A DNA stretch of 64,000 nt from Candidatus Caldarchaeales archaeon (lineage in GTDB: Archaea > Thermoproteota > Nitrososphaeria_A > Caldarchaeales > Wolframiiraptoraceae): contig JBCNVN010000001.1 of the NCBI GenBank assembly GCA_039630055.1, positions 7,588 through 71,587 on the forward strand. Reading direction: 5' to 3'. A program made the position numbers and the translations under genes. Below the pieces are notes generated by a model, which saw only the letters and a program-made list of their open reading frames with translations, did no database searches and had not been told where the DNA came from. This document shows, piece after piece, positions 20,941 to 54,716 of the stretch. Positions within the stretch are counted from its first letter, which is position 1, and the number at the start of each line of letters is the position of its first letter.

Positions 20941-20943
20941 AAT

Positions 20944-24402: not shown

Positions 24403-25131
24403 ATGAATAGAATGAATGATAATCTATTAGATGAAGAAGTTAGAGCAGAATTCAGAGGCCGATTAGAGAATTTTCTCAGTATACTTAACTCTCAGATAGA
24501 ACGGCTTAGAATTAGATATGTAGAGATGGAGTCGAGAGGTAGAGAATACTTTGAGAAAGTTATTGAGTGCTTGGTGAATATGGATGAAGAGAGAGCTAGA
24601 ATATATGCTGAAGAGATTGCTGAGATAAGAAAGCTTGCCGAGATGGTTAAGAAGAGTCAGCTTCTCCTACTACAGGTAAAGATCAGGGTAGAAACTATCG
24701 TAGAGATAACTGAGGTAATAGGATTGATATTTCCTATAACATCTCTACTGGCTGAAGTAGAAGATGAGCTTAGGCCTATCGCACCTGAAGTAGTTCAGAA
24801 CCTCCATGAACTATCAGTCTGTATAGAAGAATTTACATCTACCACGATCCATAATAGGTTGGAGCCTGTGAGATATGAAGAACTGAGTAGAGAGGCGGAG
24901 AAGATCTTAATAGAGGCTCAGAAGCATGCTGTAGAGATCGTTAAGGATAAGTTTCCAGATATTCCTACGCTGGATGAAAACGAGAGGAAAGTCTATGCCT
25001 ATCTATCTAAAAATAGTAATGAGATAGATCTAGAGAGGTGTTCTAAAGAATTAAAGTTGGATGTTAAAGAAGTAAGGAATATTTTAGCATCTTTAGAAGA
25101 GAAGGGGTTGATAGAAGTAGAAGGCGAGTAG
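24403..25131 (+). CDS. cdvB: ESCRT-III/Snf7-like CdvB with a C-terminal winged helix
   Basis: 242 aa with a long coiled-coil helical hairpin region, then ENERKVYAYLSKNSNEIDLERCSKELKLDVKEVRNILASLEEKGLIEV. This is the CdvB architecture known from Sulfolobus. Confidence 0.7.
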   Translation: MNRMNDNLLDEEVRAEFRGRLENFLSILNSQIERLRIRYVEMESRGREYFEKVIECLVNMDEERARIYAEEIAEIRKLAEMVKKSQLLLLQVKIRVETIVEITEVIGLIFPITSLLAEVEDELRPIAPEVVQNLHELSVCIEEFTSTTIHNRLEPVRYEELSREAEKILIEAQKHAVEIVKDKFPDIPTLDENERKVYAYLSKNSNEIDLERCSKELKLDVKEVRNILASLEEKGLIEVEGE

Positions 25132-34659: not shown

Positions 34660-35005
34660 CTTTCTGAATTATCCATCGTATAGAGTTTAGGGAGTTATCA
34701 TGGATCATCTTCATAAAGTTCTAAGAGGAGATCAGCATCACGTCGTTCTTTGAACACACATACTACATAAACGATTATCAATTATCATGTAGATATGTAA
34801 GAGTATGAAGATGTCAAAGGTTGGAGGAAGCATATATAAATGCTAGGAAATTGAATATAGGAAGATGAAGTTCTTCTACTCTTCTCATTGATGTATGTTA
34901 TCGCTGTCGCTCCCAGTAATCCTTTAGTGCCAGTATTCTCAATGATGCTCTTGATTGTAATATTACTGCTGCTCTACTCTATCTACACCATTAGAAGGTG
35001 ATATA

Positions 35006-36109
35006 TTGAATAGTGAAAACAAATTGTTCTCGAGATCTTCTTTAGAAGATCAACTGAGAGTTTATAGATACGTCATGGAAAAAAAGACTGAGAGTGCTAA
35101 AAACCTCGCCCAACAGATTCGAGAAAAATTCCATGTGAGTATACACCCTGACACCATAAAGCGTTGGAAAAAGAGGGGTTCTCGTTTTGACTTCTTGATC
35201 GATTACCTAGAAACTCCAATATTAGAAATATCGTACTTCACCCTCAGAGACGAGGCAATCAAATTACATAACGTATTCGGCTACGTATTGATAAGCAAGA
35301 TACTTCATATGAAGTATGGCATTAGAATCAGTCCCCCAACAATAAATGGGTGGTTGCGGGGTAAAAAGCCCAGAACAACTAATCTCTCACCATCTCCCGA
35401 ACTCGCTGTAGTAGCTGCTGCCGTTGTAGGAGACGGTTGTATAACTACTAGTAAACATTTGCGTCCCAAACCTTATGTACAAAAAAAGATAGAATTGTCC
35501 ATGAAAGACATTGAACCAGTATTGATGGTAAGAGACTGTCTACTTAAAATTTGCAAATATAATTATATAATTAGTGAAAAACAGGGAAGGTATTGGATTG
35601 CTTGTCATAGAAAGGATCTCGTAGATTATCTAAGTAATAGAGACAACATTCTCAATCTATTGCGATCTTTTCCTATAGAATTTATGAGAATGTTATTTGA
35701 GTGTGATGGTCATGTTTCTGCTAGTATTTCCACAGTAAACGATAAAGGAAAAATTAAAAAAGTCTTTGATGTAAAAATATGTCTAACGAACTCGGACAAA
35801 GAACTTTTAGAGGAGGTTCAAAAACAACTAGAAAAGTTAGGGATTCGTTCAAAGATATATTTATCCACAAAAGCTGGAACCCCACTAATAATGCCCAACA
35901 ACTCTAGGATTTATATAAGGAAGAAAGATATATACAGATTGTCCATACAGGAGAAATTGTCAATAATGAAATTCTCTACAATAAACTTTATTACTAGAAG
36001 AAAAAGACAGAAACTGGAAAATATAATCAACATTCTCCAGAAATGCTCAGAGACAGAGGCTGTAGATGAATGGATTAAACTTGTAGCTGAATATATGAAG
36101 GGCGAATAG
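35006..36109 (+). mobile_element. Free-standing double-motif LAGLIDADG homing-endonuclease-like gene with N-terminal HTH modules
   Basis: 367 aa with two LAGLIDADG-type motifs (VVAAAVVGDGCI and FMRMLFECDGHV) separated by about 90 aa. The N-terminus has two HTH-like segments ending in TIKRWKKRG and TINGWLRGKKP. It carries seven CGN Arg codons and many AAA Lys codons. TTG start. Confidence 0.7.
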
Positions 36110-36202
36110 CCCCCTCCCCTCTCTTTATTTTTATTCTTCTCTAGGCTAATATAAAATTTTCAAGTCTTGTAATTGGATCTATTACTACTTCTCTCAATTA
36201 TC

Positions 36203-37183
36203 TCACCCCTCAACCATCTTTATCTTTCCACGTAGCCGTGAGGCGGCTAACGTATATCTATAGAATGTACCCATGAAGTCTGAAAAGTTGTTTAGAGCCT
36301 TCTCAATTTCTTCTTCATTATAGTGGTCTAGGATGCTTGCAAAGTATGATGCTGCCTTACCACCATAGTCTATTACTTCGTCAAGTGGGCCGAAGCATCC
36401 TGTACAAGGCATGGCAGCCTTGACACATAGTGCTCCACATCCTCCACGAGTAACTGGGCCTAAACATGCTAATCCTTGGACTAGAAGACATTTCTCAGGG
36501 TCGACGACTATTTCATGGGGTCTCTTGACCTCCTTTATTAAAACCTTCTCAGGCTTTGTCTCATTTAGAGGACAGTCATAGCATAGGGATCTTTCAGATG
36601 CTCCTAGAACAGAACCTTTAGCTGGAAGGTTTCCTGATAGAAGAGCCTCGATAGCCTTCCATGTAACTTCGGGGGTTGGAGGGCATCCTGGAATATAGTA
36701 ATCCACATCTATTACTAGGTCTAATGGTAAGAGTCTTGGAAAGAACTCGGGTAGCTTAAGATTTATTCCCTCCTCTAATCTTACATTTGTCATAGGTGTT
36801 CTCTTTTCAGAGTTGCTAATGGTTGGAGCCTCATGATATACATAATTAAATATGTCTTCTTTACTGTATAGGTTGGCTAGACCTGGAACGCCTCCCCAAG
36901 ATGAACATGCACCATAAGCTACAACTATCTTGGACTTTTTCCTTAATAGTTTTACAACTTCTTCATGTTCCTCTAATCTTATCCCACCATTTATGAAGCT
37001 GACAGTTATAGATTTATCTGGAAGGTTCTCAACATCCTTAACCTTAAAGTCTAGTGCCACCGGCCAGAATACTATATCTACCAAGCTTACTAAGTCTAGG
37101 ATCTTCTCTGCCAAGTCTACTACAGATTCTTCACATCCACCACAGCTAGCACACCAGTAGAGAGCAACCTTAGGCTTCTCCAA
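36203..37183 (-). CDS. mvhG: [NiFe]-hydrogenase small subunit, MvhG/FrhG-like
   Basis: 326 aa with WCASCGGCEES, YGACSSWGGVPG, YYIPGCPPTPE and the C-terminal cluster region CLGPVTRGGCGALCVKAAMPCTGCFGP. Confidence 0.8.
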   Translation of the reverse strand: MEKPKVALYWCASCGGCEESVVDLAEKILDLVSLVDIVFWPVALDFKVKDVENLPDKSITVSFINGGIRLEEHEEVVKLLRKKSKIVVAYGACSSWGGVPGLANLYSKEDIFNYVYHEAPTISNSEKRTPMTNVRLEEGINLKLPEFFPRLLPLDLVIDVDYYIPGCPPTPEVTWKAIEALLSGNLPAKGSVLGASERSLCYDCPLNETKPEKVLIKEVKRPHEIVVDPEKCLLVQGLACLGPVTRGGCGALCVKAAMPCTGCFGPLDEVIDYGGKAASYFASILDHYNEEEIEKALNNFSDFMGTFYRYTLAASRLRGKIKMVEG

Positions 37184-37601
37184 CTCTCACCTCACCTTCA
37201 ACCCTCAAAGGTCCCAAAGCTTTTATCTCCCTATACATTTCTTGAGCTACTCTAACAAATTTCTCTGCTTCTGAAGCAGATATCCATTCAAGCCTAAACC
37301 TCTCCTTCTCTATCCCAAAACTCTCAAGCATCTTCTTCAGCAAAGTCATTCTCCTCAATGCTTTATAATTTCCTTCTATATAATGGCAGTCTCCTGGATG
37401 GCATCCAGCAACTAGTACTCCATCAGCACCCCGACTGAAAGCCTCCAAGATAAACTGAGGGTCGACTCTACCTGAACACATAACTTTTATAACTAAAAAG
37501 TTTGGAGGATACTTCATCCTACTCGTTCCAGCTAGGTCAAGCGCAGCATATGAGCACCAGTTACATGCAAAAACGATTATCCTAGGTTCAAAATTCTCCA
37601 A
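37170..37601 (-). CDS. mvhD: MvhD (methyl-viologen-reducing hydrogenase delta subunit family)
   Basis: 143 aa with FACNWCSYAALDLAG, VMCSGRVDP and AGCHPGDCHY. Confidence 0.88.
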   Translation of the reverse strand: MENFEPRIIVFACNWCSYAALDLAGTSRMKYPPNFLVIKVMCSGRVDPQFILEAFSRGADGVLVAGCHPGDCHYIEGNYKALRRMTLLKKMLESFGIEKERFRLEWISASEAEKFVRVAQEMYREIKALGPLRVEGEVRVGEA

Positions 37602-37607
37602 AACTGA

Positions 37608-39575
37608 TCACCTCGCTAAGGCTGCTAAGAGCTGAGCCTTAAGCTGGGTATCTTTAAAGCTGAATTGCTGCATAGCACCACTTGGGCATGCGGCTACACA
37701 AACTCCACATCCCTTACATAGAGAAGCATCAACCTTCGCCGACCTCACCCGGTCTATAACCTCTAAACTTATAGCGGTATATGGGCACACACCTATACAT
37801 ATAGAGCATCCGCTACAAATACTTTTATTGACTACTGCTATCGTAGGCTCTACTATAACTTCTTCCTTGGATAGGAGTGTTACAGCCTTAGAAGCAGCCG
37901 CACTACCTGAAGCAATACTTTCAATAATGTTTTTAGGTCCTGTAACTGCTCCAGCTAAGTAGACTCCATCTGTAGTTGCCTCAACAGGTCTAAGCTTTAG
38001 ATGTGCTTCTTTAAGGAAGCCTTCTGGTCCACATCCAACTTTAAGGATTGTTCTGACCTTATCTATACCTTCTGGAGGCTTCATCCCTACAACTAATACT
38101 ACCAAGTCTGCAGGTATAGTCACTTCTTCATTTATCGTTTCTTCAAAGAAGCTTACATATATCTCACCATCAGGTTTAACCGTCACCCTTGGAGATTCTT
38201 TAAATCTTGCGAATCTTATAAAGTGCTCACCGGCTTTTAAGTATAATTGTTCATCTCCTCTACCATACGTTCTAATATCTTTATGGAGTATGTAGATATC
38301 CGTATCCGGATATGCTTCTCTGATCATTAATGCATTCTTTATAGTTGAGGAGCAACACATCCTCGAGCAGTGTGAGTAAGCATTAGGGGTTGTGTTTAGT
38401 GAGCCTACACACATTATGAAGACTATCTTCTTAGGCTTAAACCCATCTACTACCAGTTCTCCATTTGTGGGACCATCTCGGACGAGCAATCTCTCAAGCT
38501 GGAACAATGTTGTGATCCTATTGGATAGCTTATACCCATACTCACCTATAGGAGGTTCATAAGGGTCGTAGCCTGCTGCCACGACTACTGCTCCAACATC
38601 TAGGTCTATCTCTTCAAATCTTTCCTCTAAGTTTATTGCGGCTGTGGGACATACCTCTACGCATTTACCACATCTAGTACAGTTCTGCATATCTATAACG
38701 TATAGCTTTGGATACGCATCTTTAAACGGTAGGTATATTGCTTTTCTTCTAGATATTCCAAACTCGTATTCATTCGGAACTTCTACAGGGCATATCTTAC
38801 TGCACTCATCACATAGAATACATCTCTCATTAACATACCTAGGCTTCTTCGCTAGCTTTACCTTGAAGTTTCCAACGGATCCATCTACTCCTATCAACTC
38901 TGTATTTACGTATATGTTGATGTTCGGGTCTCCAGCAACCTTCTGGATAAGCTCTCTAGCTATATCAGAGCCTTTCAGTTCTGTATAAGGTAATCTTCCA
39001 AGCCTAGCCACTCTTCCACCAAGAATAGGTGCTCTCTCGACCAAGTGAACTTTGAAACCTTTCCCAGCTAGGTCTTGAGCAGCAGCTAATCCTGAAACAC
39101 CTCCACCGATGACTAGCACGCTTCTATCTACCTTAAACTTTATATCTTCTAAAGGTTCTAGCAGAGATGCTTTAGCTACAGCCATTCTAATAAGGATCTT
39201 AACTTTCTCCGTAGCCCTCTCTTTAGTATCTGAATGTGGCCATGAACATAGTTCCCTTATATTCGCCATCTCTAGAACGTATGGATTTAGCCCAGCTTCA
39301 GCTAAGGTCGACCTAAAAGTATGTTCATGCATTGTTGGAGAACATGCAGCTACGACAACCCTGTTTAAACCATGCTTCTTAACGCTTTCCTTGATCAATT
39401 CTTGTCCAGGAGCTGAGCACATGAATAGGTAATCTCTTACCTCTACAACATTTGGTAGATTCTTAACATAATCAACTACTTCTTTAATGTTTACTACGCC
39501 TGCAATATTTGCTCCGCAGTGGCATACGTATACTCCGATTCTAGGCTCTTCACCCATGCTATACACCTCCAGCAA
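37608..39575 (-). CDS. HdrA-type flavoprotein, full length (QmoB-like position)
   Basis: 655 aa with the N-terminal RIGVYVCHCGANIAG domain, the FAD motif VIGGGVSGLAAA, an inserted ferredoxin (CILCDECSKICP, CTRCGKCVEVCP), and a C-terminal 2x[4Fe-4S] region (CSGCSICIGVCP, CKGCGVCVAACP). An alternative start at 39557 is possible. Confidence 0.85.
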   Translation of the reverse strand: MLEVYSMGEEPRIGVYVCHCGANIAGVVNIKEVVDYVKNLPNVVEVRDYLFMCSAPGQELIKESVKKHGLNRVVVAACSPTMHEHTFRSTLAEAGLNPYVLEMANIRELCSWPHSDTKERATEKVKILIRMAVAKASLLEPLEDIKFKVDRSVLVIGGGVSGLAAAQDLAGKGFKVHLVERAPILGGRVARLGRLPYTELKGSDIARELIQKVAGDPNINIYVNTELIGVDGSVGNFKVKLAKKPRYVNERCILCDECSKICPVEVPNEYEFGISRRKAIYLPFKDAYPKLYVIDMQNCTRCGKCVEVCPTAAINLEERFEEIDLDVGAVVVAAGYDPYEPPIGEYGYKLSNRITTLFQLERLLVRDGPTNGELVVDGFKPKKIVFIMCVGSLNTTPNAYSHCSRMCCSSTIKNALMIREAYPDTDIYILHKDIRTYGRGDEQLYLKAGEHFIRFARFKESPRVTVKPDGEIYVSFFEETINEEVTIPADLVVLVVGMKPPEGIDKVRTILKVGCGPEGFLKEAHLKLRPVEATTDGVYLAGAVTGPKNIIESIASGSAAASKAVTLLSKEEVIVEPTIAVVNKSICSGCSICIGVCPYTAISLEVIDRVRSAKVDASLCKGCGVCVAACPSGAMQQFSFKDTQLKAQLLAALAR

Positions 39576-40848
39576 TTATAGATGCTTTGATAGCTGCAGA
39601 GTCGGCTTGGACCACTGAGTCGGGTATATCTTTAGCTCCAGCAGCTACTCCTACAACATATATCCCTTTTATATTTGTTGAGGTTGGGTCTAGGTAAGGA
39701 TTCTCTAAACGTATGTATCCATCTTCGCTCAATGTTATAGGTAGAGCGGTTGGATAGTTCGGCTTAACCCCTAAAGCTAATACAACCATTTCAGCTCTCA
39801 TAGTCTTCTTAATCCCAGTGAAAGTATCTTCATAAGTAATCATAAGGTCTTTAGTCTTAGGGTCTTCCTCGATCTTCGCAGGCTTACTCCTAACGAAGTT
39901 TATCTTAAATTCCTCTCTAGCTCTGTTGTAGAATTCTTGGTATCCTTTTCCGAACGCTCTCATATCCATGTAGAATATTGTGCACTCAACATCCGGCAAG
40001 TGTTCTTTCGCAAGTATTGCATGTTTAATGGAGGCAGTACAGCAGAAGGCTGAGCAGTTTGGATTTATCTTAACATCTCTGGAACATATGCATTGTATAA
40101 ATGCAATACTCTTCGGATGCTTTTTATCCGACCTCCTCACGACCTCTCCACCTGTTGGACCTGTTGCAGACACCAGTCTTTCAAATTCTAAAGATGTGTA
40201 AACGTTTGCATATTTTCCATAACCGTAGAGTGGCTGTAGCTTGGGATCCATGAGTTCATATCCAGTAGCAATAATAATGGATGCAACGTTAAGCTCTATC
40301 GTTTGAGGCTGTTGCTCAAAGTCTACTGCTCTCGTTGGGCAGACCCTCTCACATACTCTACAAATCCCTTTAGTAAAGTAGAAGCAATAGTCTCTATCTA
40401 TTGTTGCTTTTAGAGGGACTGCTTGAGGGAAGAGGAAATATATCGCTCTTCTATTGCTCATCCCTAGATTAAACTCGTCTGGAACTTTAGATGGACACTT
40501 AGACATACAAACTCCGCATCCAATACATTTATCTTCGATAACGTATCTAGGCTTCTTCAGGATCCTTACATTAAAGTCTCCTACTCCTCCTTTAACATCT
40601 AATACTTCTGAATACGTTAAGAGCTTTATCATTGGATGTCTTGCAACGGAGACCATCTTAGGCGTAAGTATGCATGAAGAGCAGTCTAATGTTGGAAATG
40701 TTTTATCGAGTTGAGCCATTTTACCACCAATACTCGGAGCCTTCTCGACCAGATACACTGGGATTCCGTGATCACCGAGATCCAAAGCTGCTTGGATACC
40801 AGCGATCCCTCCACCAATAACCAATACAGGCTTAGGCAAGCGCGCCAC
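39559..40848 (-). CDS. Short HdrA-core flavoprotein (QmoA-like)
   Basis: 429 aa with VIGGGIAGIQAA, DKTFPTLDCSSCILTPKM and an inserted ferredoxin (CIGCGVCMSKCP, CRVCERVCP). It lacks both the N-terminal Cys domain and the C-terminal ferredoxin of full HdrA. Confidence 0.8.
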   Translation of the reverse strand: MARLPKPVLVIGGGIAGIQAALDLGDHGIPVYLVEKAPSIGGKMAQLDKTFPTLDCSSCILTPKMVSVARHPMIKLLTYSEVLDVKGGVGDFNVRILKKPRYVIEDKCIGCGVCMSKCPSKVPDEFNLGMSNRRAIYFLFPQAVPLKATIDRDYCFYFTKGICRVCERVCPTRAVDFEQQPQTIELNVASIIIATGYELMDPKLQPLYGYGKYANVYTSLEFERLVSATGPTGGEVVRRSDKKHPKSIAFIQCICSRDVKINPNCSAFCCTASIKHAILAKEHLPDVECTIFYMDMRAFGKGYQEFYNRAREEFKINFVRSKPAKIEEDPKTKDLMITYEDTFTGIKKTMRAEMVVLALGVKPNYPTALPITLSEDGYIRLENPYLDPTSTNIKGIYVVGVAAGAKDIPDSVVQADSAAIKASIIAGGV

Positions 40849-41962
40849 CTCCTGAAGCTAAGAATCTCTCTTTCAAATTCGAGAAATAGATTGCGAAGGG
40901 TCTGTAAGCTAAGTGGGACCACTTGGTGAAAGGCACTTCAAGTATCAAGAATGGTGCAACCACCATTAAGTGTATCGAGTAGGTTATGTACGTTGCCAGA
41001 GGTAGCTCGATGAGTCTAAAGATTCCGACGAGAATGCCTGTTACCGTTGTGATGAAGAGTAGGATTATAAACATCCAGTCTGTTGGATGAGAGTAGCTCC
41101 ACATAGGTTGAGATCTCTTAATCCTCCCATAGATAGCTACTGAGGAACCGTAGAGCAATGCTATTGTAGAGAATATGCCGAGGATACTTAGAGGATTGAC
41201 TAGTAGGAACGGCTCATTCGTTTGAGTAAATCTAAGCAATGGGACGAATAGTATGAAAGCTGCAGCATATCCGTAGACTATGATCAAATGGTTTATCCAG
41301 TTGGATGCTCTACATAACCTAAACTTTATCTGTGTAAATAAGTGTACTGGAATAGTCTTAATGAAGTCTTTAATCATGAACCTTAAAGGTATCTTTATCC
41401 TTCTCTCATGATCATCCCTCATAATATATCTATACATTCTGTAGAGATTTGTTAAAAGCAATGTTGCAAGTATGAATAAGACTGCTAATCCAGCTGTATC
41501 AACTATATGTATTGGTGCAAAAGTTTCAAGCTCGACACTATCTAATACTATTGGTCCATGTAAGAAATAGATTAATAAGCCCACTATCGCTGCTATAGCT
41601 GCCGTCGCTAATATTTCTACTTTCTTTGAGTAGTATAGTAGTTTCGAGAGTCCAGTCCAGTCATACTTAGTTGTAAGATACCTTCTAAGAGCCATCATAA
41701 AGCCTCCCGGATCAGCATCTCTAGGGCAATATTCACTACACTCTCCACAGTAGTAGCATAGCCATGGTTCTGGGCTTGATAGAAGCCTGTCTTGGACACC
41801 CATCAATGCATAACGGATTAGTTTTCTCGGATAATTTGCACGTCCTTCACCAGTGACAGGGCATATAGCAGTACACTGACCACAGTTAAAACATTTAGAG
41901 AGACCTTTTGCTCCCAGTCTAATTATTTCTCTTGTTGTTTGAGGCACAACTAGACTTATCAT
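40832..41962 (-). CDS. Fusion of an HdrC-like 2x[4Fe-4S] domain with a six-helix NarI/HdrE-like membrane domain (QmoC-like)
   Basis: 376 aa with CFNCGQCTAICP and CYYCGECSEYCP at the N-terminus. About six hydrophobic helices follow and carry His residues (FLHGP, PIHIVD, NHLIIVYGY, YSIHLMV, WSHLAY). Confidence 0.7.
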   Translation of the reverse strand: MISLVVPQTTREIIRLGAKGLSKCFNCGQCTAICPVTGEGRANYPRKLIRYALMGVQDRLLSSPEPWLCYYCGECSEYCPRDADPGGFMMALRRYLTTKYDWTGLSKLLYYSKKVEILATAAIAAIVGLLIYFLHGPIVLDSVELETFAPIHIVDTAGLAVLFILATLLLTNLYRMYRYIMRDDHERRIKIPLRFMIKDFIKTIPVHLFTQIKFRLCRASNWINHLIIVYGYAAAFILFVPLLRFTQTNEPFLLVNPLSILGIFSTIALLYGSSVAIYGRIKRSQPMWSYSHPTDWMFIILLFITTVTGILVGIFRLIELPLATYITYSIHLMVVAPFLILEVPFTKWSHLAYRPFAIYFSNLKERFLASGGGALA

Positions 41963-42082
41963 ATTTCCGATAGAAGGAAAAAGAAAAAGTTTATTAAGTT
42001 TTCTTAAGAAAAAATATACTATTACTACTATATATACCTCCTAATCGGTTAAGGAATATATTCTAAACTAATGAAGTATATA

Positions 42083-43114
42083 CTAACAGATTCTTGGAAC
42101 TATCTCACCTATTGGTGGTTCAAGGATCCTATATCCACCTACACTCGTCCTGACCACTACTAGACTCATATCCTCTCTAGGTCTCACATCGCCTATTATC
42201 TGTGCCTCGACATATCCTACAGAATGTATTTGTTCAAGTACCTCTTCAGCTATTTCTCCTTCTACACCTATGACAGCTACTCCTTCAGATGCTAGTGTAA
42301 GAGGGTCTAATCCAAGCATCCCACAATAATTCTTAACAGACTCTCTTATTGGAATCTTCTCTTCATCGATAACTATAGTGGTATTAGAGGCTGAAGCCCA
42401 GTTGTTTAGAGTCATTGCTAACCCTCCCCTAGTGGGATCACTAGCGGCATGGATGTTTTCACGGTGTCTTCTAGTAATAGGGATCATCAAGTCTGTTAGA
42501 GGTTTAACATCACTTACAAGCTGAGATTCTTCAAGCATAACCTTCTCTCTAGCAGCATATATCGCTACACCATGCTCAGCTATAGGTCCTGAAACTATTA
42601 TCTTATCTCCAGGTCTTAGATTCTTATCGATTATTAATTGTTCTGCAATACCTATACCAGCCATTGTAATGATTATCTTATCCAGCTGCCCTCTAGGCAT
42701 GACTTTAAAATCTCCACCTATCAACTTAACATCCATACTCTTAAGTACAGTGAACATCGAATCTAAGATCTTCTGTAAAACTTCTTCTTCAAACCCTTCC
42801 TCAACTATTATAGAATCTAGGACAGCTATCGGCATCCCTCCAAGCATTAGTAGATCGTTTATTGTTCCAGTGGCTGAGAGTTTTCCAATATCTCCCCCTG
42901 GAAAGAATATTGGGCTAACCGTATAGGCATCCGCTGTTATTATAAGATATCTTCCTCCACCCATAGGTATTGCTGCAGCATCATCTGGAAAATCTATCCC
43001 TATCCCGCCTTCTACAAACTTCATCCAAGATGGCACCCTTCCGAAGATCAAATCTTCAAGTAGCCGGCTCATCTCTCTACCACCAGAGCCATGTGCAAGA
43101 GTTATCTTACCCAT
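42083..43114 (-). CDS. hypE: Hydrogenase maturation protein HypE
   Basis: The ATG at 43114 gives MGKITLAHGSGG. The fold is AIR-synthase-like and the diagnostic C-terminus PRIC is present. Confidence 0.92.
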   Translation of the reverse strand: MGKITLAHGSGGREMSRLLEDLIFGRVPSWMKFVEGGIGIDFPDDAAAIPMGGGRYLIITADAYTVSPIFFPGGDIGKLSATGTINDLLMLGGMPIAVLDSIIVEEGFEEEVLQKILDSMFTVLKSMDVKLIGGDFKVMPRGQLDKIIITMAGIGIAEQLIIDKNLRPGDKIIVSGPIAEHGVAIYAAREKVMLEESQLVSDVKPLTDLMIPITRRHRENIHAASDPTRGGLAMTLNNWASASNTTIVIDEEKIPIRESVKNYCGMLGLDPLTLASEGVAVIGVEGEIAEEVLEQIHSVGYVEAQIIGDVRPREDMSLVVVRTSVGGYRILEPPIGEIVPRIC

Positions 43115-43124
43115 CTCCACACAC

Positions 43125-43418
43125 CTATCTCTCCAAACCTCTCCAATACTTAACAATTTTATCCATCTCTTTTAATTCTTCTATGGAGAGTTCACCTTCT
43201 TCAACAAGCTTCTCAGAAATCTCCTTGATATATTTGAAGCTTTCAAGAAAGTCTTCTTCACTAAGCTTTGAGATAACTATTCCTGCATGGACGATTACGT
43301 AATCTCCGGGAGATAACTCATCTACCGCTGAGAATACTTCTCTCGTAACCCCTCCAAAATCTACTTTAACATTCTTTTCAGATACTTCTACCACCTTCCC
43401 ATATACTCCCCAACACAT
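43125..43418 (-). CDS. hypC: Hydrogenase maturation chaperone HypC
   Basis: 97 aa with the N-terminal MC (Cys2) followed by a beta-barrel-like GKVVEV...VDFGG pattern. It sits between hypD and hypE. Confidence 0.85.
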   Translation of the reverse strand: MCWGVYGKVVEVSEKNVKVDFGGVTREVFSAVDELSPGDYVIVHAGIVISKLSEEDFLESFKYIKEISEKLVEEGELSIEELKEMDKIVKYWRGLER

Positions 43419-44587
43419 TACCTAACCACCTTTAATCCACGGTATCTAGCCCATATAGAGCATGTTCCCTCTAAGCTCACCATGCATGGTCCATAAGGAG
43501 TATCTAGGGTACACTTAGTCAAGAAGAGAGGACAGTCTACAGGTTTTATCCTTCCCAAGATTACCTCCCCACATCTACATCCTGCCGATAGGTCGTGGGT
43601 CCACTCACTCTCCGAAGGTTCTTTGAAACCGTAGAGGCTTAATCCATCTAGTTCAAGATACTCTTTTCTCAGCTTATATCCACTTGATGGGATGAACCCT
43701 ATACCTCTCCAAGCTGCATCACATACGTCAAAGACTTGACCGATCATCTTTTTCGCAAAAGTATTACCCTCCCAACTTACAGCTCTAGTATACTCGATCA
43801 CTACCTCCGACCTACCCTCATCTATCTGTCTAAGTATCTCCGCTATCGATATGAGGACATCTATCGGCTCGAATCCTGAGACCACTGTCGGAATACCATG
43901 CTCTTCAGATAGCTTCTTCCAAGCTTCTCCCCCTATAATTGTTGATACATGTCCAGGAGCGATGATCCCATCTACTCCACCCACTTTCTTTATAGCATAA
44001 TCGGCTGCAGGTGGAGTTAACCTACCTGCAACTATAAAACTGAACCCTTTAGGTATAGAGTTCTTTATGATCATTGAGGCGTAGACTGGATATGTAGTCT
44101 CAAAACCTATTGCTAGAAATACTGATTCTCTCCCATCGCTTCTAGCATCTTTAACAGCATCGAGAAGGCTGTAAACTATCGAGACGTCTCCACCAGCTGA
44201 CCTAGCCTCCGCAAGACTCTTAACTCCTTCAGTAATCCTGACTGTGGGAAGCCTATAGGCATCACCGTATGTATAAACTCTTATCCCTTCGAGGGCGAGC
44301 TTGATCGCTGCCTCGATATAGAATGATGGAGTTATGCAGACTGGACAGCCTGGGCCTGCTACCAACTCTATACCTTCAGGTAGAATGCTCCTCAGTCCAT
44401 AGTGAGTCGTGGCCCACTCATGGGTTCCACAGAAGTTCATTATCTTTACCCTATCAATCCCATTACGTTTAATATTATTCCATAATGTATCTATAATTTT
44501 GACTATCTTTGAGGATAATTCCCGATTACTTCTAAAGATTTTATCGGTAGCCGTTCTTAGGTCTGACCACTCCAACATTATCAACAT
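43418..44587 (-). CDS. hypD: Hydrogenase maturation protein HypD
   Basis: 389 aa with GPGCPVCITP, FETT, PGHVS and a C-terminal Cys cluster. Confidence 0.92.
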   Translation of the reverse strand: MLIMLEWSDLRTATDKIFRSNRELSSKIVKIIDTLWNNIKRNGIDRVKIMNFCGTHEWATTHYGLRSILPEGIELVAGPGCPVCITPSFYIEAAIKLALEGIRVYTYGDAYRLPTVRITEGVKSLAEARSAGGDVSIVYSLLDAVKDARSDGRESVFLAIGFETTYPVYASMIIKNSIPKGFSFIVAGRLTPPAADYAIKKVGGVDGIIAPGHVSTIIGGEAWKKLSEEHGIPTVVSGFEPIDVLISIAEILRQIDEGRSEVVIEYTRAVSWEGNTFAKKMIGQVFDVCDAAWRGIGFIPSSGYKLRKEYLELDGLSLYGFKEPSESEWTHDLSAGCRCGEVILGRIKPVDCPLFLTKCTLDTPYGPCMVSLEGTCSIWARYRGLKVVR

Positions 44588-44728: not shown

Positions 44729-46720
44729 CTATGCGATTGCCTCTACCTTTACTACACGTCTTGGAATTATAGATTCTATCTCACTAAGTATCTGTTTGTC
44801 TGTAAACCCTCTCTGCCTCAGCGTTCTCGCTCCAGATGGACATGATGCTACACAGGTTCCACACCCTTGGCATAATGCTTCTTGAATGAGTGTGGTCTTA
44901 CTCTGAACATCATATACGGCTGCTCCATATGGGCAAACCGATACACACATCCTACAACCTGAACATGTATTCCTATTAACCTCAGCTATTATCGGCTCTA
45001 CTTCTATCACACCCGAGCTTAGTAGCGCTAACGCTTCAGATGCGGCCGCAGCTCCCTGGGCCACAGAATCAGGTATATCTTTAGGCCCTTGACATGCTCC
45101 TGCTACGAATACTCCTGTTGTCACAGTTGAGACGGGGGCTAGCTTTGGATGCTTCTCTAGGAAGAACCCATCTTTATCGAGTGGTACTCTGAATAACTTG
45201 GCAAGCTCTCTCGCATCCTTTCTAGGCTCTATAGCTGTAGCGAGAACCACCATATCTGCCTCAATGTTTTGGACTCTACCGAGTAGAGTATCTTCAAATG
45301 TTACTGTCAGCTTTCCATCTCCATTATCTACAACTTCAGCAGCCTTACCTCTAATGAAGATCACACCTTCTTCTTGAACCTTCCTATAAAATTCTTCATA
45401 CCCTTTCCCATGTGCTCTGATATCTATGTATAGATTGTATACGGTAGAGTTTGGTAGTCTTTCTTTAATTAAGTGGGCGAGCTTGATAGCGTACATACAG
45501 CAGATTCTTGAGCAATATATGTGATAATTCTCATCTCTAGATCCAACACAATGTAAGATTACTATCGTTGAAGGAGTTCTACCATCTCTCATAACAATCT
45601 TTCCACCTGTTGGACCTGATGCACTTGTGAGTCTCTCAACTTCTAGACCTGTATAGACATTTGTGTACCGCCCATATCCATATCTTTTTATTATCGTTGG
45701 GTCAAAGAGATCATATCCAGTAGCAAGAATAATTGCTCCAACCTCCAGAATTACTTCTTCAGGTTTCTGTTCAAAGTTTATCGCCTTAGTAGGACAGAAT
45801 CTCTCACAGACTCTACATATTCCCTTAGTGAAATATAAACAATGCTTTCTATCGATAGTATATTTTCTCGGTACTGCCTGAGGGAATTTTATGTATATTG
45901 CTTTCCTAAAGTTTAATCCCATATTAAATTCATCTGGAACTTTGGATGGGCATTTAGTAGCGCAAACTCCGCATCCTACACACTTGCTCTCATCAACGTA
46001 TCTAGGCTTCTTGACAACCTTGACCTTATAGTTTCCAACATGTCCTGATACTTCTTTTACTTCAGAGTAGGTAAATAAAACGATGTTCGGGTTGGATGCT
46101 AAATCAACCATCTTCGGGGTCAAGATGCATGCTGCACAATCCAATGTTGGGAATGTCTTTTCTAACTGTGCCATCCTACCTCCTATCGATGGTTCTTTCT
46201 CCACTAAGTAGACTTTCTTACCAGCTTTAGCTATCTTTAAGGCTGTCTCTATACCTGTTATTCCCCCTCCGACGATTAATACAGATTGTTTTACTGGGAG
46301 ATAGATCTTATTGAGCGGTTCATGGAATTTAACCCTGTTTACTGCTGCAGAGACTAGAAGCTTAGCTTTTTCTGTAGCTTTATCTACATTGTCTGTAACC
46401 CAAGATACTTGCTCACGGATATTCACCATCTGGAACATGTAAGGATTTAAGCCACCCTCTTCACAGACTCTCTGAAACGTCGCTCCATGCATAGTGGGAG
46501 AACAAGAAGCTACGACAACATTCGTAAGATTGTAATCCTTGATGTCTTTCTTTATTAGCTCCTGGCCTGGATCAGAACACATATATGGATAGTTTCGTGC
46601 TATGACTACTCCATCCAGATCTTTAACATACTCTCTTAGTTTCTCAACATCTACCATTGAGGCTATATTAAGACCACAATGGCATATGTATACCCCAATC
46701 CTCCTAACCATTAACATCAC
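44729..46720 (-). CDS. hdrA: Heterodisulfide reductase subunit A
   Basis: 663 aa with RIGVYICHCGLNIA, VGGGITGIETA, EKTFPTLDCAACILTPKM, an inserted ferredoxin and C-terminal ferredoxin domains. It lies downstream of hdrC-hdrB. Confidence 0.9.
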   Translation of the reverse strand: MMLMVRRIGVYICHCGLNIASMVDVEKLREYVKDLDGVVIARNYPYMCSDPGQELIKKDIKDYNLTNVVVASCSPTMHGATFQRVCEEGGLNPYMFQMVNIREQVSWVTDNVDKATEKAKLLVSAAVNRVKFHEPLNKIYLPVKQSVLIVGGGITGIETALKIAKAGKKVYLVEKEPSIGGRMAQLEKTFPTLDCAACILTPKMVDLASNPNIVLFTYSEVKEVSGHVGNYKVKVVKKPRYVDESKCVGCGVCATKCPSKVPDEFNMGLNFRKAIYIKFPQAVPRKYTIDRKHCLYFTKGICRVCERFCPTKAINFEQKPEEVILEVGAIILATGYDLFDPTIIKRYGYGRYTNVYTGLEVERLTSASGPTGGKIVMRDGRTPSTIVILHCVGSRDENYHIYCSRICCMYAIKLAHLIKERLPNSTVYNLYIDIRAHGKGYEEFYRKVQEEGVIFIRGKAAEVVDNGDGKLTVTFEDTLLGRVQNIEADMVVLATAIEPRKDARELAKLFRVPLDKDGFFLEKHPKLAPVSTVTTGVFVAGACQGPKDIPDSVAQGAAAASEALALLSSGVIEVEPIIAEVNRNTCSGCRMCVSVCPYGAAVYDVQSKTTLIQEALCQGCGTCVASCPSGARTLRQRGFTDKQILSEIESIIPRRVVKVEAIA

Positions 46721-47630
46721 CTTTTATAGTAGTGGTTAAAACTATCTTCTTGCCGAGATTCTCTAACATATCCTTGCTGACTCCGAGCTCATGGAACGGA
46801 AGATTAAAAGACAATCCAATTAGTTGAGTGAAATAGACTATCTGAATATTAGAGATATCTTTAACTTCTCTCTTCATCTTGATCTTAGCTATCTCTAAGT
46901 TTAAATGACATAGTGGGCATGCTGTAACGATACATTCTGTACCGAGCCGGATATATGATTCAAATATTTTCTTGATCATTGGTAATACTTTCTCTTCATT
47001 TGTCATCATCAGCATTCCTCCACAGCACTTTGTTTTTAAAGGAGAATCGATAGGTTTACCACCTATCCATGAGATCATCCGTTCTATAGAGTTGGGAAAT
47101 TCTGGGTCATCGAAGTATCCGTATGGTCTAGTTATCTGACATCCATAATACGGTGCGACTTTCAATCCATCCAACCCTTTAACAATACTCATCTTAAAGA
47201 GTTCTTCTCCTACATCATTTACTAGAAAATCTATTATGTGACGTACTTTAAGCTTTGATGATTCTGAATTGTTGAAGACATTATACTTTTTCTTAATCTC
47301 ATTTAAGAGTTCCATGTTTTCTGATATTTCGGTTAAAGTTCTTTTTAGTGATAGAAAGCATGCTGGACAGAGAACAAGGATTTCGGGGACACCCATCTCT
47401 AATGCTTTTGCCAGATTTCTAGCTCCTAGAAAGTATGCTCTCTTCTCATTTAATATTCTATAAAGATTTGATCCACAACAGTTCCAATCTTTTATCTCTG
47501 ATACCTGTACACCTATCTTCTTGAGTAATGCGAGGGTAGACTTCCCATAATATCTTGCTATTCCATTTTTAGAACATGAGCAGCCCGGATAATAACTGAC
47601 GTTTTTAGTTAGCTTACTATTCATAACCAC
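46704..47630 (-). CDS. hdrB: Heterodisulfide reductase subunit B
   Basis: 308 aa with two CCG domains (YYPGCS..WNCCGS..CPACF and YYGCQ..KCCGG..CPLCH). Confidence 0.88.
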   Translation of the reverse strand: MVMNSKLTKNVSYYPGCSCSKNGIARYYGKSTLALLKKIGVQVSEIKDWNCCGSNLYRILNEKRAYFLGARNLAKALEMGVPEILVLCPACFLSLKRTLTEISENMELLNEIKKKYNVFNNSESSKLKVRHIIDFLVNDVGEELFKMSIVKGLDGLKVAPYYGCQITRPYGYFDDPEFPNSIERMISWIGGKPIDSPLKTKCCGGMLMMTNEEKVLPMIKKIFESYIRLGTECIVTACPLCHLNLEIAKIKMKREVKDISNIQIVYFTQLIGLSFNLPFHELGVSKDMLENLGKKIVLTTTIKGDVNG

Positions 47631-47637
47631 ACCTCAG

Positions 47638-48150
47638 CTATGCTCTAATCTCTTCAAGATTTTCTAATTTTTCAGGAGATAGAGAGAGGACCCCTTCACG
47701 TAGTAATCTGGCTGATAGAGGTAACATCTTTAAAAGCTTCAGAGGGTTTGTTCTTAGTGAGAAAGTTATCATAAGCCTAGTCTCAGATATCCTACCATAC
47801 TTATCCACCAAGTCTACGTATGTCTTCATAAGCTTCGGATAGGTCAATCCATCAGAATATCCATTCTCCAATGCATATCTTTTCAGTGACGTCATAAACT
47901 CTCCAATATTTATCTTGGCTGGACAGCGTACAGCGCAGAGATAGCATGTTGAACATAACCATAACGTATTGCTTTTTAAAGCTTCTTCGACCAACCCCTC
48001 TCTAATCAATACGATCAATTGTCTAGGAGTATAATTCATATATTGGTTAAGTGGGCATGAGGCAGAACAGGTCCCACATTGTATACATTTCTCAATTACT
48101 GTCCGAATATACTTACTATCTTTTATAAGATGAATAGTTTGAGAGTTCAA
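47638..48150 (-). CDS. hdrC: Heterodisulfide reductase subunit C
   Basis: 170 aa with CIQCGTCSASCP and CSTCYLCAVRCP. Confidence 0.85.
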   Translation of the reverse strand: MNSQTIHLIKDSKYIRTVIEKCIQCGTCSASCPLNQYMNYTPRQLIVLIREGLVEEALKSNTLWLCSTCYLCAVRCPAKINIGEFMTSLKRYALENGYSDGLTYPKLMKTYVDLVDKYGRISETRLMITFSLRTNPLKLLKMLPLSARLLREGVLSLSPEKLENLEEIRA

Positions 48151-48154
48151 GTTC

Positions 48155-48508
48155 TCACCTAATATTATCTTCTAATTCTGACGATTTTCCACTTAGCTTC
48201 ATGGTCCATTCTAATGCATAATCTTCTCCCATTTTGTTTGCTGCAATTATTATCAAACTACTCTCAATTTCTAAAATATCTTTGGATAATTGGGATAGTG
48301 TTTTATAGTACTCAACGAGATTATCTTCTCCATCTAGATGATATTTACAATGATTTATCAGAGATTTGCAACATGTAAAAGCTGTCACTATTCTTTCTGG
48401 TACATATACATCTCTTTTCTTTAAATCGATGATAAGTTCTGCTAAAGACTTCCATTTATCTTCAATCTTGACGAGAGCCATTCTTCCATCTATGTTTTTA
48501 CCTATCAT
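48155..48508 (-). CDS. Hypothetical helical protein, first gene of the hdrCBA operon
   Basis: 117-aa ORF ending 4 nt before the hdrC start. It contains FTCCKSLINHCKYH. No family is recognised. Confidence 0.45.
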   Translation of the reverse strand: MIGKNIDGRMALVKIEDKWKSLAELIIDLKKRDVYVPERIVTAFTCCKSLINHCKYHLDGEDNLVEYYKTLSQLSKDILEIESSLIIIAANKMGEDYALEWTMKLSGKSSELEDNIR

Positions 48509-48665: not shown

Positions 48666-49775
48666 ATGGTATATATTCTATCTGTGATAGTAAGGAGATT
48701 GCAGAAAGTTGGACATAATACGCTATCTGTTACATTGCCGAATCAATGGATTAAGGAGATGGGGTTAAAAAAGGGTGATGCAATAGTCTTTACTTTTGAG
48801 AATGATGGTTCTATAAGACTTAAACCGAGCTCGCTAACTGAGAGAGAGAAACAGAAGAAGGAAACAATAATATACTCAGACCAGTGTAAAGACCCCTCCT
48901 TACTTGAGAGGTTAATCGTTAGTAATTATATTCTTGGACAAGATATTATAAGGATAGTCTCTTCGACCTCTCTTAGGGCGAGCTATCTTGAAACCATAAA
49001 GGGAACTGTAGGCAAGCTGATCGGTGTTGCAATAATAGAAGAGACTCCTCTCCAAGTATTACTTCAATGTGTTATCAATCCATCATCCTTTCCATTACAG
49101 GTTCTTATTAGAAGACTTTACATTATAGTATCAACTATGCATAAAGAGCTGTCTGATGCCTTAAAAGAACTCAATTTAGACCTATCTAGACAGATAATCT
49201 TGAGAGAGCCTGAAGCTGATAAGATTCACTTACTGATTTCGCGTCTCCTAACCGTAGCACAAGAGAATAAAGAAATATCTTCAGTTATAGGTATCGAAGA
49301 TGTTAAAGATATAATTCAGTATAGAATTGTATCGATGAATCTAGAGAGGATTGCCGACTGGATAGAGAGCATGTCTAGGTATATTGAGTATCTTGAGCCT
49401 AATAGAAAACTCATAGGTGAAGAAGCATTAAATTATCTATTTGATATGAGTAACCTATCACATACACTATGTTTCAATGCGATAAGCTCATTATTCTCAG
49501 GAGATCTAGAAGAAGCAAATAATGCTATTCAAAGTTATAAAGAAACTTTTCAAGATAGAGACTCGAAGATTATGCATAAATTGGCTGAGTATATTCAATG
49601 TATGCCGTGTGGACCATTGATAGGTGTAATAGCTTTTGGCCTAATAAGGGTGGCTGAACTCGGGTCAGAGATAGCTGAACTTGCAATAAACAAGGGAATA
49701 AGAAAACCTTCTAAATATTCAGAAATCCTAGTAGAAGATGAGGTGCTGAAAAAACTCTACTCAATAGAATCTTAA
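48666..49775 (+). CDS. AbrB/SpoVT-domain plus PhoU-like-domain regulator
   Basis: 369 aa. The N-terminus [34 protein letters not shown] is a swapped-hairpin AbrB motif. The C-terminus has helical PhoU-like repeats. Confidence 0.7.
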
Positions 49776-53609: not shown

Positions 53610-54716
53610 ATGAGAGAACTGGAGAGATTGGCTGCAGAACGTGCACGTGAAGCTGTAAAATATGATAAGCTAGGTATGAAGGAAGATGCGCTGGTTAATT
53701 ATAGAGAGGCAGTTCAACTCTTGTTGAAGCTTATAAAGTTCGTGGATGACCCCGTGATGAAGAAAGTGTATGAAGAGAAGATTAAACAGTATAGTGAGAG
53801 ATTGGAGGTTCTATTAGAGAAGAGTACCGAATCATCATCAGCATCTTCAAAAACTAGAGATCGGGAGAACTATCTAATAGTTGATCCTCCACCGATTAAA
53901 TGGGAAGACATAATAGGTTTAGAAGAAGCTAAGAAGGCTCTTAGAGAGAGCATAGTATATCCATCTCTAAGACCTGAGTTGTTTCCTTTGGGATGGCCCC
54001 GAGGGATACTCTTCTTCGGTCCTCCGGGATGCGGAAAGACTATGCTGGCGGCCGCTGCCGCTAACGAGATAGACGCAGTCTTCATGCAGGTTGATGCTTC
54101 TATGATTATGTCTAAGTGGCTTGGAGAATCAGAGAAGAATATTGCATCCATCTTTGAGGATGCTAGAAGATATGAGAGGGAGGGGAAACCTGTAATAATC
54201 TTGGTAGATGAAGTAGATTCATTGACAACTTATAGGGAGAATGAGGTAGGTGGAGAGGCTAGAGCTAGGAACCAGCTTCTAAAAGAGATGGATGGTCTAC
54301 AAGATAAGGGTAGGATACCTAGAATATATGTGATAGCTGCAACGAATAAGCCCTGGCTACTTGATGAGCCATTCATCCGTAGATTCCAGAAGAGGATCTA
54401 TATCTCTCTACCAAGCTATGAGTCAAGGCTCAACATGTTTAAACACTATACAAAGAGGCTTGAACTTGAAGATGATGTAGATTTTGAAGAATTGGCAAGG
54501 ATTACAGAAGGATATAGTGGAGCAGACATATATAATATCTCTATGGAGGCGCAGTTAAAGGTTGTAAGCGAGTTCTTTGAGAAAGGTAGAGGAGATAGAC
54601 CGAGAAAGATTAGTATGAATGATTTTTATGAGATTATAAAGAAGAACAAGCCAAGTATCGAGGCAGAATCATTAAAGAAGATCTTGGAATGGGCTAGAAG
54701 ATTTGCATCAGGATAA
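53610..54716 (+). CDS. cdvC: Vps4/CdvC AAA+ ATPase (MIT domain plus AAA)
   Basis: 368 aa with an N-terminal MIT-like three-helix region, Walker A GPPGCGKT, Walker B ILVDEVD and a second region of homology. Confidence 0.88.
   Translation: MRELERLAAERAREAVKYDKLGMKEDALVNYREAVQLLLKLIKFVDDPVMKKVYEEKIKQYSERLEVLLEKSTESSSASSKTRDRENYLIVDPPPIKWEDIIGLEEAKKALRESIVYPSLRPELFPLGWPRGILFFGPPGCGKTMLAAAAANEIDAVFMQVDASMIMSKWLGESEKNIASIFEDARRYEREGKPVIILVDEVDSLTTYRENEVGGEARARNQLLKEMDGLQDKGRIPRIYVIAATNKPWLLDEPFIRRFQKRIYISLPSYESRLNMFKHYTKRLELEDDVDFEELARITEGYSGADIYNISMEAQLKVVSEFFEKGRGDRPRKISMNDFYEIIKKNKPSIEAESLKKILEWARRFASG

Follow-up and report, generated by a model that had tools for sequence, protein, structure and literature searches.

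What does a relative of Qmo, the quinone-interacting membrane oxidoreductase of sulfate reducers, do when its genes stand next to those of a [NiFe] hydrogenase? The question is raised by positions 37608 to 41962 of a 64-kb stretch of DNA from a Candidatus Caldarchaeales archaeon (the whole stretch is called the window below), where three consecutive minus-strand genes encode homologs of QmoC, QmoA, and QmoB. We find that these genes are part of a new Caldarchaeales member of a published, biochemically uncharacterized cassette, and that they represent neither a relocated Qmo of sulfate reduction nor an unusual arrangement. The role that we favor, at a probability of roughly 60%, is that the three genes would provide the membrane anchor and the flavoprotein half of a conserved seven-gene cassette for H2-driven, flavin-based electron bifurcation to menaquinone and ferredoxin. 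Whether such cassettes bifurcate has already been asked in the literature; the window adds distribution and anatomy to that question.

Gene organization of the cassette

The open reading frames listed in an initial annotation of this DNA are all present on the minus strand. Five tightly packed frames occupy positions 36203–41962 and, depending on the choice of start codon, overlap by 8–17 nt or are separated by 1–6 nt. The first (40832–41962) encodes a QmoC-like protein of 376 amino acids in which an HdrC-like domain for two [4Fe-4S] clusters is joined to a six-helix membrane domain with conserved histidines. Next come a short hdrA gene (39559–40848, 429 amino acids, QmoA-like), whose product is a thioredoxin-reductase-like core that binds flavin adenine dinucleotide (FAD), with an inserted ferredoxin domain, and a long hdrA gene (37608–39575, 655 amino acids, QmoB-like), which adds an N-terminal domain and a C-terminal ferredoxin domain to the same core. 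No MvhD domain is fused to the long protein; the [2Fe-2S] connector MvhD is a separate protein of 143 amino acids (37170–37601), matching the full Pfam FlpD profile with 196.6 bits and the NCBIfam VhuD model with 136.5 bits. The fifth gene (36203–37183, 326 amino acids) encodes an MvhG/VhuG-type hydrogenase small subunit, of which residues 2–321 match positions 3–285 of the 286 in NCBIfam VhuG (224 bits) and which also matches Pfam Oxidored_q6. An independent gene call on an identical contig (L087) gave HdrA proteins of 426 and 649 amino acids, and the real start of the long protein is probably Met7, which yields the 649 residues of that call.

The 376-residue protein matches the NCBIfam qmoC model end to end (residues 10–360 against 6–360 of 360; 204.8 bits, E = 2.6e-60), and its N-terminus carries two CX2CX2CX3C motifs. 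Its score lies below the curated cut-off of this equivalog (NF038018, 300 bits), but so do the scores of QmoC from Ammonifex thiophilus, which is encoded next to apr genes (198.1 bits), and from the sulfate reducer Desulfacinum hydrothermale (206.6 bits). Because the cut-off would also exclude QmoC proteins of bona fide sulfate reducers, it cannot separate members from non-members, and it was dropped as a criterion. Together with alignments to solved HdrA (PDB chain 5ODC_A), the profile matches bear out the subunit logic proposed in the initial annotation, i.e., QmoC-, QmoA-, and QmoB-like proteins accompanied by a separate MvhD.

Three layouts of Qmo-type loci

A search with the QmoC-like protein retrieved 2,777 relatives, and a scan of one genome per species gave at least 597 loci, of which the best 80 were read. 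Mapping the window proteins onto these loci revealed three layouts. In the Mvh-linked layout (a), which is that of the window, the order is qmoC-hdrA(short)-hdrA(long)-mvhD-mvhG-mvhA(-hycI). It was found in Nitrososphaerota/Caldarchaeales (L001, L004–L006, L008), Archaeoglobaceae (L007), Bathyarchaeia (L009), and Thermoprotei (L010) and, by direct look-up, in Ca. Methanoglobus (L092) and the korarchaeon Ca. Methanodesulfokora (L094). At least five archaeal lineages thus share the fixed seven-gene order. Among species representatives, Ca. Geocrenenecus arthurdayi is closest, with 81% QmoC identity. Co-occurrence in other archaea had been put forward as a check on the locus, and it changes how the arrangement is read: the C-A-B order, the split MvhD, and the small subunit regarded as appended, which had been taken for an unusual context, are the standard and already published form of this cassette.

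Layout (b) starts with mvhD and continues with short hdrA, long hdrA, and qmoC, without hydrogenase genes, in many bacteria and some archaea. It is very widespread (L011, L012, L014, L016, L019, and about 40 further loci), with neither hydrogenase nor apr or sat genes within 10 kb. Its hosts include Chloroflexota, Desulfobacterales, Planctomycetota, Acidobacteriota, and some archaea. The Vulcanisaeta locus (L031) has the same order, with no MvhD match upstream. Layout (c) is the canonical qmoA-qmoB-qmoC, in which QmoB carries a fused MvhD and lacks the inserted ferredoxin domain. The QmoB of locus L067 illustrates both features: VhuD matches at residues 612–744, and a stretch corresponding to about residues 252–326 of the 655-residue window protein is missing.

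In a neighbor-joining tree of 82 QmoC-family proteins, which is based on simple distances and carries no support values, the Mvh-linked proteins form one clade with a single nested exception (L017). The window protein groups with those of L001, L004, L007, L009, and L010 (and L017). Within this clade, QmoC identity averages 64% (range 54–79%), as against a mean of 44% to all other QmoC proteins.

If the genes were an ordinary QmoABC serving adenosine 5'-phosphosulfate (APS) reductase in sulfate reduction or sulfur oxidation, only moved away from aprBA, the hydrogenase genes would be unrelated neighbors. The qmoC profile score would fit this, since the 204.8 bits of the window protein resemble the 198 bits of Ammonifex and the 206.6 bits of Desulfacinum. 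The gene context does not fit. AprB, AprA, and Sat were confirmed on the Ammonifex and Desulfofundulus loci and then used as tblastn queries; matches were confined to six layout (c) loci (L015, L033, L034, L046, L055, and L081), and none was found in the 64-kb window or within 10 kb of the loci of layouts (a) and (b). Dsr families had no match among roughly 50 window open reading frames scanned. The remark in the initial annotation that no apr, sat, or dsr gene lies nearby therefore stands. Furthermore, the linkage to mvhDGA-hycI is conserved in five lineages, the long HdrA differs from canonical QmoB by its inserted ferredoxin domain and the lack of a fused MvhD, and the metagenome-assembled genome (MAG) of Ca. 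Methanoglobus nevadensis has the cluster but no Sat, AprAB, or DsrAB (10.1101/2022.12.01.518715). We consider a plain Qmo very improbable. In annotation, sulfate reduction should therefore not be concluded from genes of this type.

Several of the related loci carry further genes at the borders of the cassette. In Ca. Methanodesulfokora (L094, positions 1–2804), a second [NiFe] large subunit, an iron-sulfur protein, an NrfD-type membrane protein, and a HycI-like protease are encoded directly upstream. In Ca. Methanoglobus (L092, 11007–12386), a gene for an IS605 OrfB/Cas12f-like TnpB protein directly follows hycI, another mobile-element gene at the 3' edge of a cassette. In L004–L006 (6705–8419), a ubiquitin-like protein, an E2-type UQ_con protein, a JAB deubiquitinase, and a Urm1/ThiS protein are encoded just upstream of hypC; such a eukaryote-like ubiquitin system is typical of Aigarchaeota/Caldarchaeales.

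The QmoC-like subunit

An AlphaFold2 model of the QmoC-like protein, made with 120 homologs, had a mean predicted local distance difference test score of 91.2 and a predicted template modeling score of 0.90. Six hydrophobic helices span residues 113–134, 151–180, 221–239, 259–282, 293–317, and 321–345. The eight cluster cysteines, C217, H225, H331, and H350 are invariant in the 82 family members, which cover all three layouts. H292 is kept in 74 of them, including all 15 canonical A-B-C-type loci, and H135 in 68, including all Mvh-linked members. This pattern shows that the same histidines are conserved in Mvh-linked and apr-linked QmoC. If the Fe-S domain is cytoplasmic, H225, H292, and H350 would lie on the cytoplasmic side of the membrane and H135 and H331 toward the outside. 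Judged from this predicted topology, the placement would suit two hemes b.

The N-terminal domain is clearly HdrC-like. A QmoC-family profile run against solved chains matched HdrC (E = 4.6e-20) and no membrane protein, and a Foldseek search of the PDB with the model likewise returned HdrC for the N-terminal domain (probability 1.0). The fusion of an HdrC-like domain with a NarI/HdrE-like domain, as described in the initial annotation, is hence borne out for the HdrC domain, the six helices, and the histidines; the NarI fold is taken up below. The protein neither lacks the conserved histidines nor belongs to an unrelated family, the two outcomes that would have counted against its assignment.

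The long and short HdrA proteins

The short HdrA aligns with residues 145–563 of 5ODC_A, the solved HdrA of Methanothermococcus (E = 1.7e-137), a segment that comprises the flavin-binding core and the inserted ferredoxin domain but neither terminal domain. It contains the motifs GGGIAG at residue 12, DCSSCI at residue 55, and CSAFCC at residue 265. The alignment of the long HdrA with the same chain runs from end to end, over its residues 9–649 (E = 1.3e-197), and the protein has four CX2CX2CX3C motifs and no DCxxC. None of the four HdrA domains is missing from it, not even the inserted ferredoxin domain, which canonical QmoB lacks, and it thereby possesses the FAD core and the inserted and C-terminal ferredoxin domains of the solved electron-bifurcating HdrA.

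The two proteins differ in a complementary way. In layouts (a) and (b), the flavin-domain DCxxC motif is present in the short HdrA and absent from the long one, whereas canonical QmoA and QmoB both lack it, apart from an off-register regular-expression match in the short subunit of L015. A short protein with DCxxC paired with a long protein without it was found at every Mvh-linked locus checked. Conversely, N- and C-terminal ferredoxin domains occur in the long protein of layouts (a) and (b) and not in the short one, while QmoB has the fused MvhD domain at its C-terminus instead. Ferredoxin-type cysteine motifs number four in the long HdrA of layout (a) and one or two in that of layout (b); in the short HdrA they are confined to the inserted domain, which QmoB does not have. 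The sequence comparison shows that the window proteins are nearer to true HdrA than to canonical QmoA and QmoB. The complementary pattern of motif and domains suggests an obligate long/short heterodimer that would replace the HdrA homodimer of methanogens.

Presence and absence among close relatives

Close relatives of the window organism differ in exactly the three genes that raised the question. Aigarchaeota MAGs with 77–80% DNA identity (L088–L090, including GCA_026413845.1 and GCA_025058515.1) have hdrCBA-hypDCE followed by mvhDGA-hycI and lack precisely qmoC-hdrA-hdrA. At that position (8301–8580) they have 280 bp of unrelated AT-rich DNA with an open reading frame of 50–74 amino acids, and the hypE-mvhD interval of L088 has no similarity to qmoC or to either hdrA that could mark a deletion scar. 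The QmoC/HdrA module is thus present or absent between close relatives, with the same hydrogenase beside a soluble HdrABC set in all of them. Also in L088 (13973–15445), the TIP49 gene, which encodes 455 amino acids in L001, is represented by a C-terminal fragment of only 99 amino acids, after about 1.2 kb without a called gene; this gene may be disrupted or contain an intein.

The cassette also appears in more distant hosts. The Archaeoglobaceae MAG of locus L007, the closest locus in that family, shares 70% DNA identity with window positions 36159–43999, over 7.9 kb from hypD to mvhG, with 68–83% protein identity. Since these values are far above expectation between the two phyla, they suggest horizontal transfer of the whole hyp-qmoC-mvh block.

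A truncated mvhA in the window

The gene that follows mvhG in the related loci is mvhA, encoding the [NiFe] large subunit. In the window it starts 5 nt after mvhG on the minus strand, and its first 13 codons (36197 down to about 36159; L/M-REVVIDPITRLE) are intact. Direct reading then gives five unrelated codons and a stop, and the remnant as a whole occupies 36141–36197, a truncation that the initial annotation had missed. With MvhA of the relatives as query, tblastn matched residues 1–14 only, and it detected no other piece of MvhA or HycI in the 64 kb. DNA similarity to seven related loci stops at 36159–36165, and a tblastx comparison of the regions downstream of the relatives' mvhA with the window gave no match that would indicate resumed synteny.

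Exactly at the synteny break, the place of mvhA-hycI is occupied on the opposite strand by an orphan gene for a LAGLIDADG-type endonuclease (35006–36109, plus strand, 367 amino acids; Pfam LAGLIDADG_3, E = 1e-14) with an N-terminal helix-turn-helix. The surrounding stretch (34660–36158) has a G+C content of 31–34%, compared to 40–44% in its flanks, and no flanking repeats were found around it. Among 5.8 billion proteins, the only match of the LAGLIDADG protein was itself. This protein and a 371-residue version of the QmoC-like protein are recorded on one contig of an NCBI MAG named Candidatus Caldarchaeales archaeon.

An intact allele of mvhA also exists. The 5.5-kb contig L087, from a different run (SRR28200752), shares 5,482 nt with the window at 100% identity, exactly as far as the break, and continues beyond it as GHGKIVVVLDEMGNCSRAYL, i.e., as intact MvhA. 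In addition, a complete MvhA of 487 amino acids (P0130), closest to VhuA of the F420-non-reducing type, is recorded on an 18.9-kb contig under the same Ca. Caldarchaeales MAG name. Its N-terminus is exactly that of the window remnant, and its accession number is near those of the window proteins. The 37-mer that directly precedes the break gave no match in a metagenome scan. Given the intact allele, either a part of the population carries a real rearrangement or the contig was joined chimerically at this point. We infer, with a slight leaning, that it is a real strain variant, as a de Bruijn-graph branch at unique sequence would arise more easily by strain variation than by a repeat.

The break also raises the possibility that the locus is a decaying remnant in this strain, in which a rearrangement removed mvhA-hycI and the five remaining genes are unused or being lost. 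The stop shortly after codon 13 with all synteny lost beyond it, the low-G+C orphan DNA at the junction, the existence of a sister lineage already without the three-gene module, and the graph argument just given would agree with such decay. On the other hand, the five remaining frames are intact and full length, with 67–92% identity to their relatives, as is also seen for the neighboring hyp genes; the identical contig from another run leads into intact mvhA; and the complete mvhA held by the same MAG means that the junction may be a chimeric join. We regard decay as a serious possibility that stays well short of an even chance. Until the mvhA break has been checked against reads, H2 use by this organism should not be inferred.

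A possible electron path and its competitors

By homology with the solved MvhADG-HdrABC complex, from which we read subunit assembly, quinone as acceptor, and bifurcation, the complete cassette could work as follows. MvhA and MvhG would oxidize H2, and MvhD would pass the electrons to the flavin of the long/short HdrA heterodimer. From there, the high-potential electron would travel through the HdrC-like Fe-S domain of QmoC and the membrane heme-b domain to menaquinone, which would take the place of the heterodisulfide and HdrB of methanogens. The low-potential electron would leave through the inserted ferredoxin domains to ferredoxin. Because the HdrC-like domain is fused to a membrane heme-type domain and does not partner with an HdrB, menaquinone (about −75 mV; PMC3333476) is the simplest reading of the high-potential acceptor. 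An H2-linked, possibly bifurcating, quinone-linked complex was already suggested in the initial annotation, and it agrees with the gene context of the relatives and with the proposals in the two Ca. Methanoglobus papers discussed below.

The strongest competitor is a plain, non-bifurcating uptake hydrogenase, in which electrons from H2 would reach menaquinone by way of MvhAGD, an HdrA pair that serves only as a wire, and QmoC, and energy would be conserved by a redox loop at the cytochrome b. By established redox potentials, the reduction of menaquinone with H2 is strongly exergonic by itself; quinone-reducing hydrogenases typically have a membrane anchor with conserved histidines; and no ferredoxin partner is encoded in the cassette. 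However, all lineages keep two complete HdrA cores for FAD binding and, with them, both inserted ferredoxin domains, which would be costly for a wire, and HdrA is the bifurcating module in every solved relative among the PDB matches. We therefore consider simple uptake unlikely.

The complex could also run without H2 as substrate, either as a ferredoxin:menaquinone oxidoreductase or by confurcating H2 evolution from reduced ferredoxin and menaquinol. A confurcation scheme has been proposed for canonical Qmo (PMC3333476), and members of the host's family have been described as fermenters that have plenty of reduced ferredoxin and evolve H2 with a separate membrane-bound hydrogenase (PMC9246946). 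The redox potentials make H2 formation from menaquinol very unfavorable, and ferredoxin as a second donor would not change this. That an Mvh-type hydrogenase is tightly and universally linked to the cassette speaks for H2 as the substrate, and hydrogenases of this type are known as H2 oxidizers. This direction appears improbable, more so than simple uptake.

Several observations weigh against H2-driven bifurcation by the window genes. The transfer of electrons from H2 to menaquinone is already strongly downhill, and a cytochrome-b-anchored hydrogenase would for that reason need no bifurcation. The relatives that keep hdrCBA and mvhDGA without the three genes show that the module is dispensable. 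As assembled, the locus has neither the intact mvhA nor the hycI that follow mvhG elsewhere; with mvhA cut after codon 13 and hycI absent, it cannot make the hydrogenase, and the function may be lost in this strain. The similarity of the membrane domain to NarI (1y5l_C) is weak, at Foldseek rank 37 with an E-value of 1.2, a probability of 0.82, and a target-normalized template modeling score of 0.43; profile and fold searches with the QmoC-like protein turned up no solved Qmo or HdrE structure, and the relationship of the QmoC membrane domain to HdrE is taken from the literature (PMC3333476). Finally, no biochemical study of any cassette member turned up in the literature.

A broader version of the bifurcation reading can be put forward more tentatively, at odds only slightly short of even. 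The cassette would encode a membrane-anchored bifurcating hydrogenase built on an obligately asymmetric HdrA heterodimer, with menaquinone as acceptor. Its genes would have passed horizontally between hot-spring archaea, as a module that can be exchanged for HdrABC on the same Mvh hydrogenase. If the electron path described above is right, a single enzyme would couple H2 oxidation to the membrane quinone pool and, at the same time, to low-potential ferredoxin, and it would give non-methanogenic and methanogenic hot-spring archaea both respiratory energy and biosynthetic reducing power.

Neighboring genes

Directly upstream of the cassette lie hypE, hypC, and hypD for [NiFe] maturation (42083–44587, minus strand), with NCBIfam scores of 348, 53, and 364.6 bits, respectively, all above the cut-offs. 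The same neighbors are found in L001, L007, and L088. The AT-rich spacer of 120 nt between hypE and qmoC (41963–42082, minus strand) is a candidate terminator and promoter region for the cassette: read directly, it contains a T-run (TATATTTTTTCTT) and a TATA-like element (TTAATAAAC) about 35 nt before the ATG. Farther upstream, at 44729–48508 on the minus strand, profile matches identify DUF2096-hdrC-hdrB-hdrA. The HdrABC set encoded there is soluble and separate from the cassette, and the same hydrogenase could use it as an alternative partner. The hypDCE and hdrCBA neighbors named in the initial annotation are thus confirmed, and hypF and, further on, hypA and hypB also flank the region.

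The DUF2096 gene (48155–48508, minus strand) precedes hdrC, and a divergent gene of the AbrB/MazE-PhoU type (48666–49775, plus strand) separates it from hypF. Both keep their positions in L001 and L088, and they may encode an accessory protein and a regulator of the hdr-hyp-mvh region. The paper on Wolframiiraptoraceae that named Ca. Geocrenenecus makes no mention of the cluster and reports a membrane-bound Mbh hydrogenase along with Hyp proteins (PMC9246946). Such a separate hydrogenase could explain the intact hyp genes here.

A UbiA-family prenyltransferase gene (15741–16667, plus strand) had been described as MenA-like. Its best NCBIfam scores fall below the curated cut-offs, with 215.7 bits for a prenyltransferase model (cut-off 239) and 153.8 bits for MenA models (cut-off 277), although MenA models are the closest ones. 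An archaeal lipid prenyltransferase was considered and rejected, as lipid models of the GGGP type gave only 31–34 bits, far under the MenA models. The gene lends weak support to the presence of a naphthoquinone pool.

The window further encodes a NurA-HerA pair, CdvB, CdvC, and the PolD large subunit (19903–22395, 24403–25131, and 53610–54716 on the plus strand; 60178–63606 on the minus strand). CdvB, CdvC, and PolD mark the source as a TACK archaeon, and the genes fit a Nitrososphaeria/Caldarchaeales host.

Comparison with known systems

The closest described system is the cluster of Ca. Methanoglobus. In Ca. M. nevadensis, Mvh subunits, two HdrA homologs, and a QmoC-HdrC fusion were reported as "a fascinating gene cluster", and the authors speculated on electron flow between H2, ferredoxin, and menaquinone (10.1101/2022.12.01.518715). 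In Ca. M. hypatiae, the cluster was named Mvh-Qmo-Hdr and was expressed at 995–2,431 reads per kilobase per million mapped reads; bifurcation of electrons from H2 to menaquinone and ferredoxin was hypothesized (10.1101/2023.09.08.556235 = PMC10945360). Parts and order are the same in the window, as checked on contig L092. The host is different, a member of the Caldarchaeales (Nitrososphaeria) rather than a methanogen of the Archaeoglobi, and the window has hypDCE and hdrCBA directly upstream, a truncated mvhA, and no hycI. To these reports our analysis adds the fixed gene order across at least five archaeal lineages, a separate Qmo-family clade without a link to APS reductase, and the presence or absence of the three-gene module, beside a soluble HdrABC set, between close Caldarchaeales relatives. 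Overall, the observation made in the initial annotation holds, and its interpretation is supported in part.

With canonical QmoABC (PMC3333476), the window shares a QmoC that combines an HdrC-like domain for two [4Fe-4S] clusters with a cytochrome-b-type membrane domain and has the same invariant cysteines and histidines, as well as two HdrA-derived flavoproteins, one of them short and QmoA-like, and an MvhD module. It differs in its C-A-B rather than A-B-C order, in a separate MvhD that is not fused to QmoB, in the inserted ferredoxin domain of the long subunit and the DCxxC motif of the short one, and in its linkage to a [NiFe] hydrogenase instead of aprBA/sat. Its QmoC falls into a separate clade, at about 44% identity.

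"Type II Qmo" of Vulcanisaeta moutnovskia and Ammonifex degensii has QmoA- and QmoB-like proteins closer to true HdrA than to bacterial QmoAB (Chernyh et al., 2020; Neukirchen et al., 2023, PMC10504309), a feature that the window proteins share. Type II Qmo was reported with or without Dsr/Apr, and its function was left open by the authors (PMC10504309). The arrangement that we see for it is mvhD-hdrA-hdrA-qmoC without hydrogenase (L011, L012, L014, L016), whereas in the window type qmoC comes first and mvhDGA-hycI follows.

The MvhADG-HdrABC complex of methanogens (PDB 5ODC, 8RVU) contains MvhD, MvhG, and MvhA of the same kind as the window and its relatives. The long HdrA corresponds end to end to the solved HdrA, and the N-terminal domain of QmoC matches HdrC. 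The differences lie at the acceptor side and in the flavoprotein. In the cassette, HdrB is replaced by a membrane heme-type domain fused to HdrC, the HdrA homodimer gives way to a putative long/short pair, and the proposed acceptor is menaquinone rather than CoM-S-S-CoB, the heterodisulfide of coenzymes M and B.

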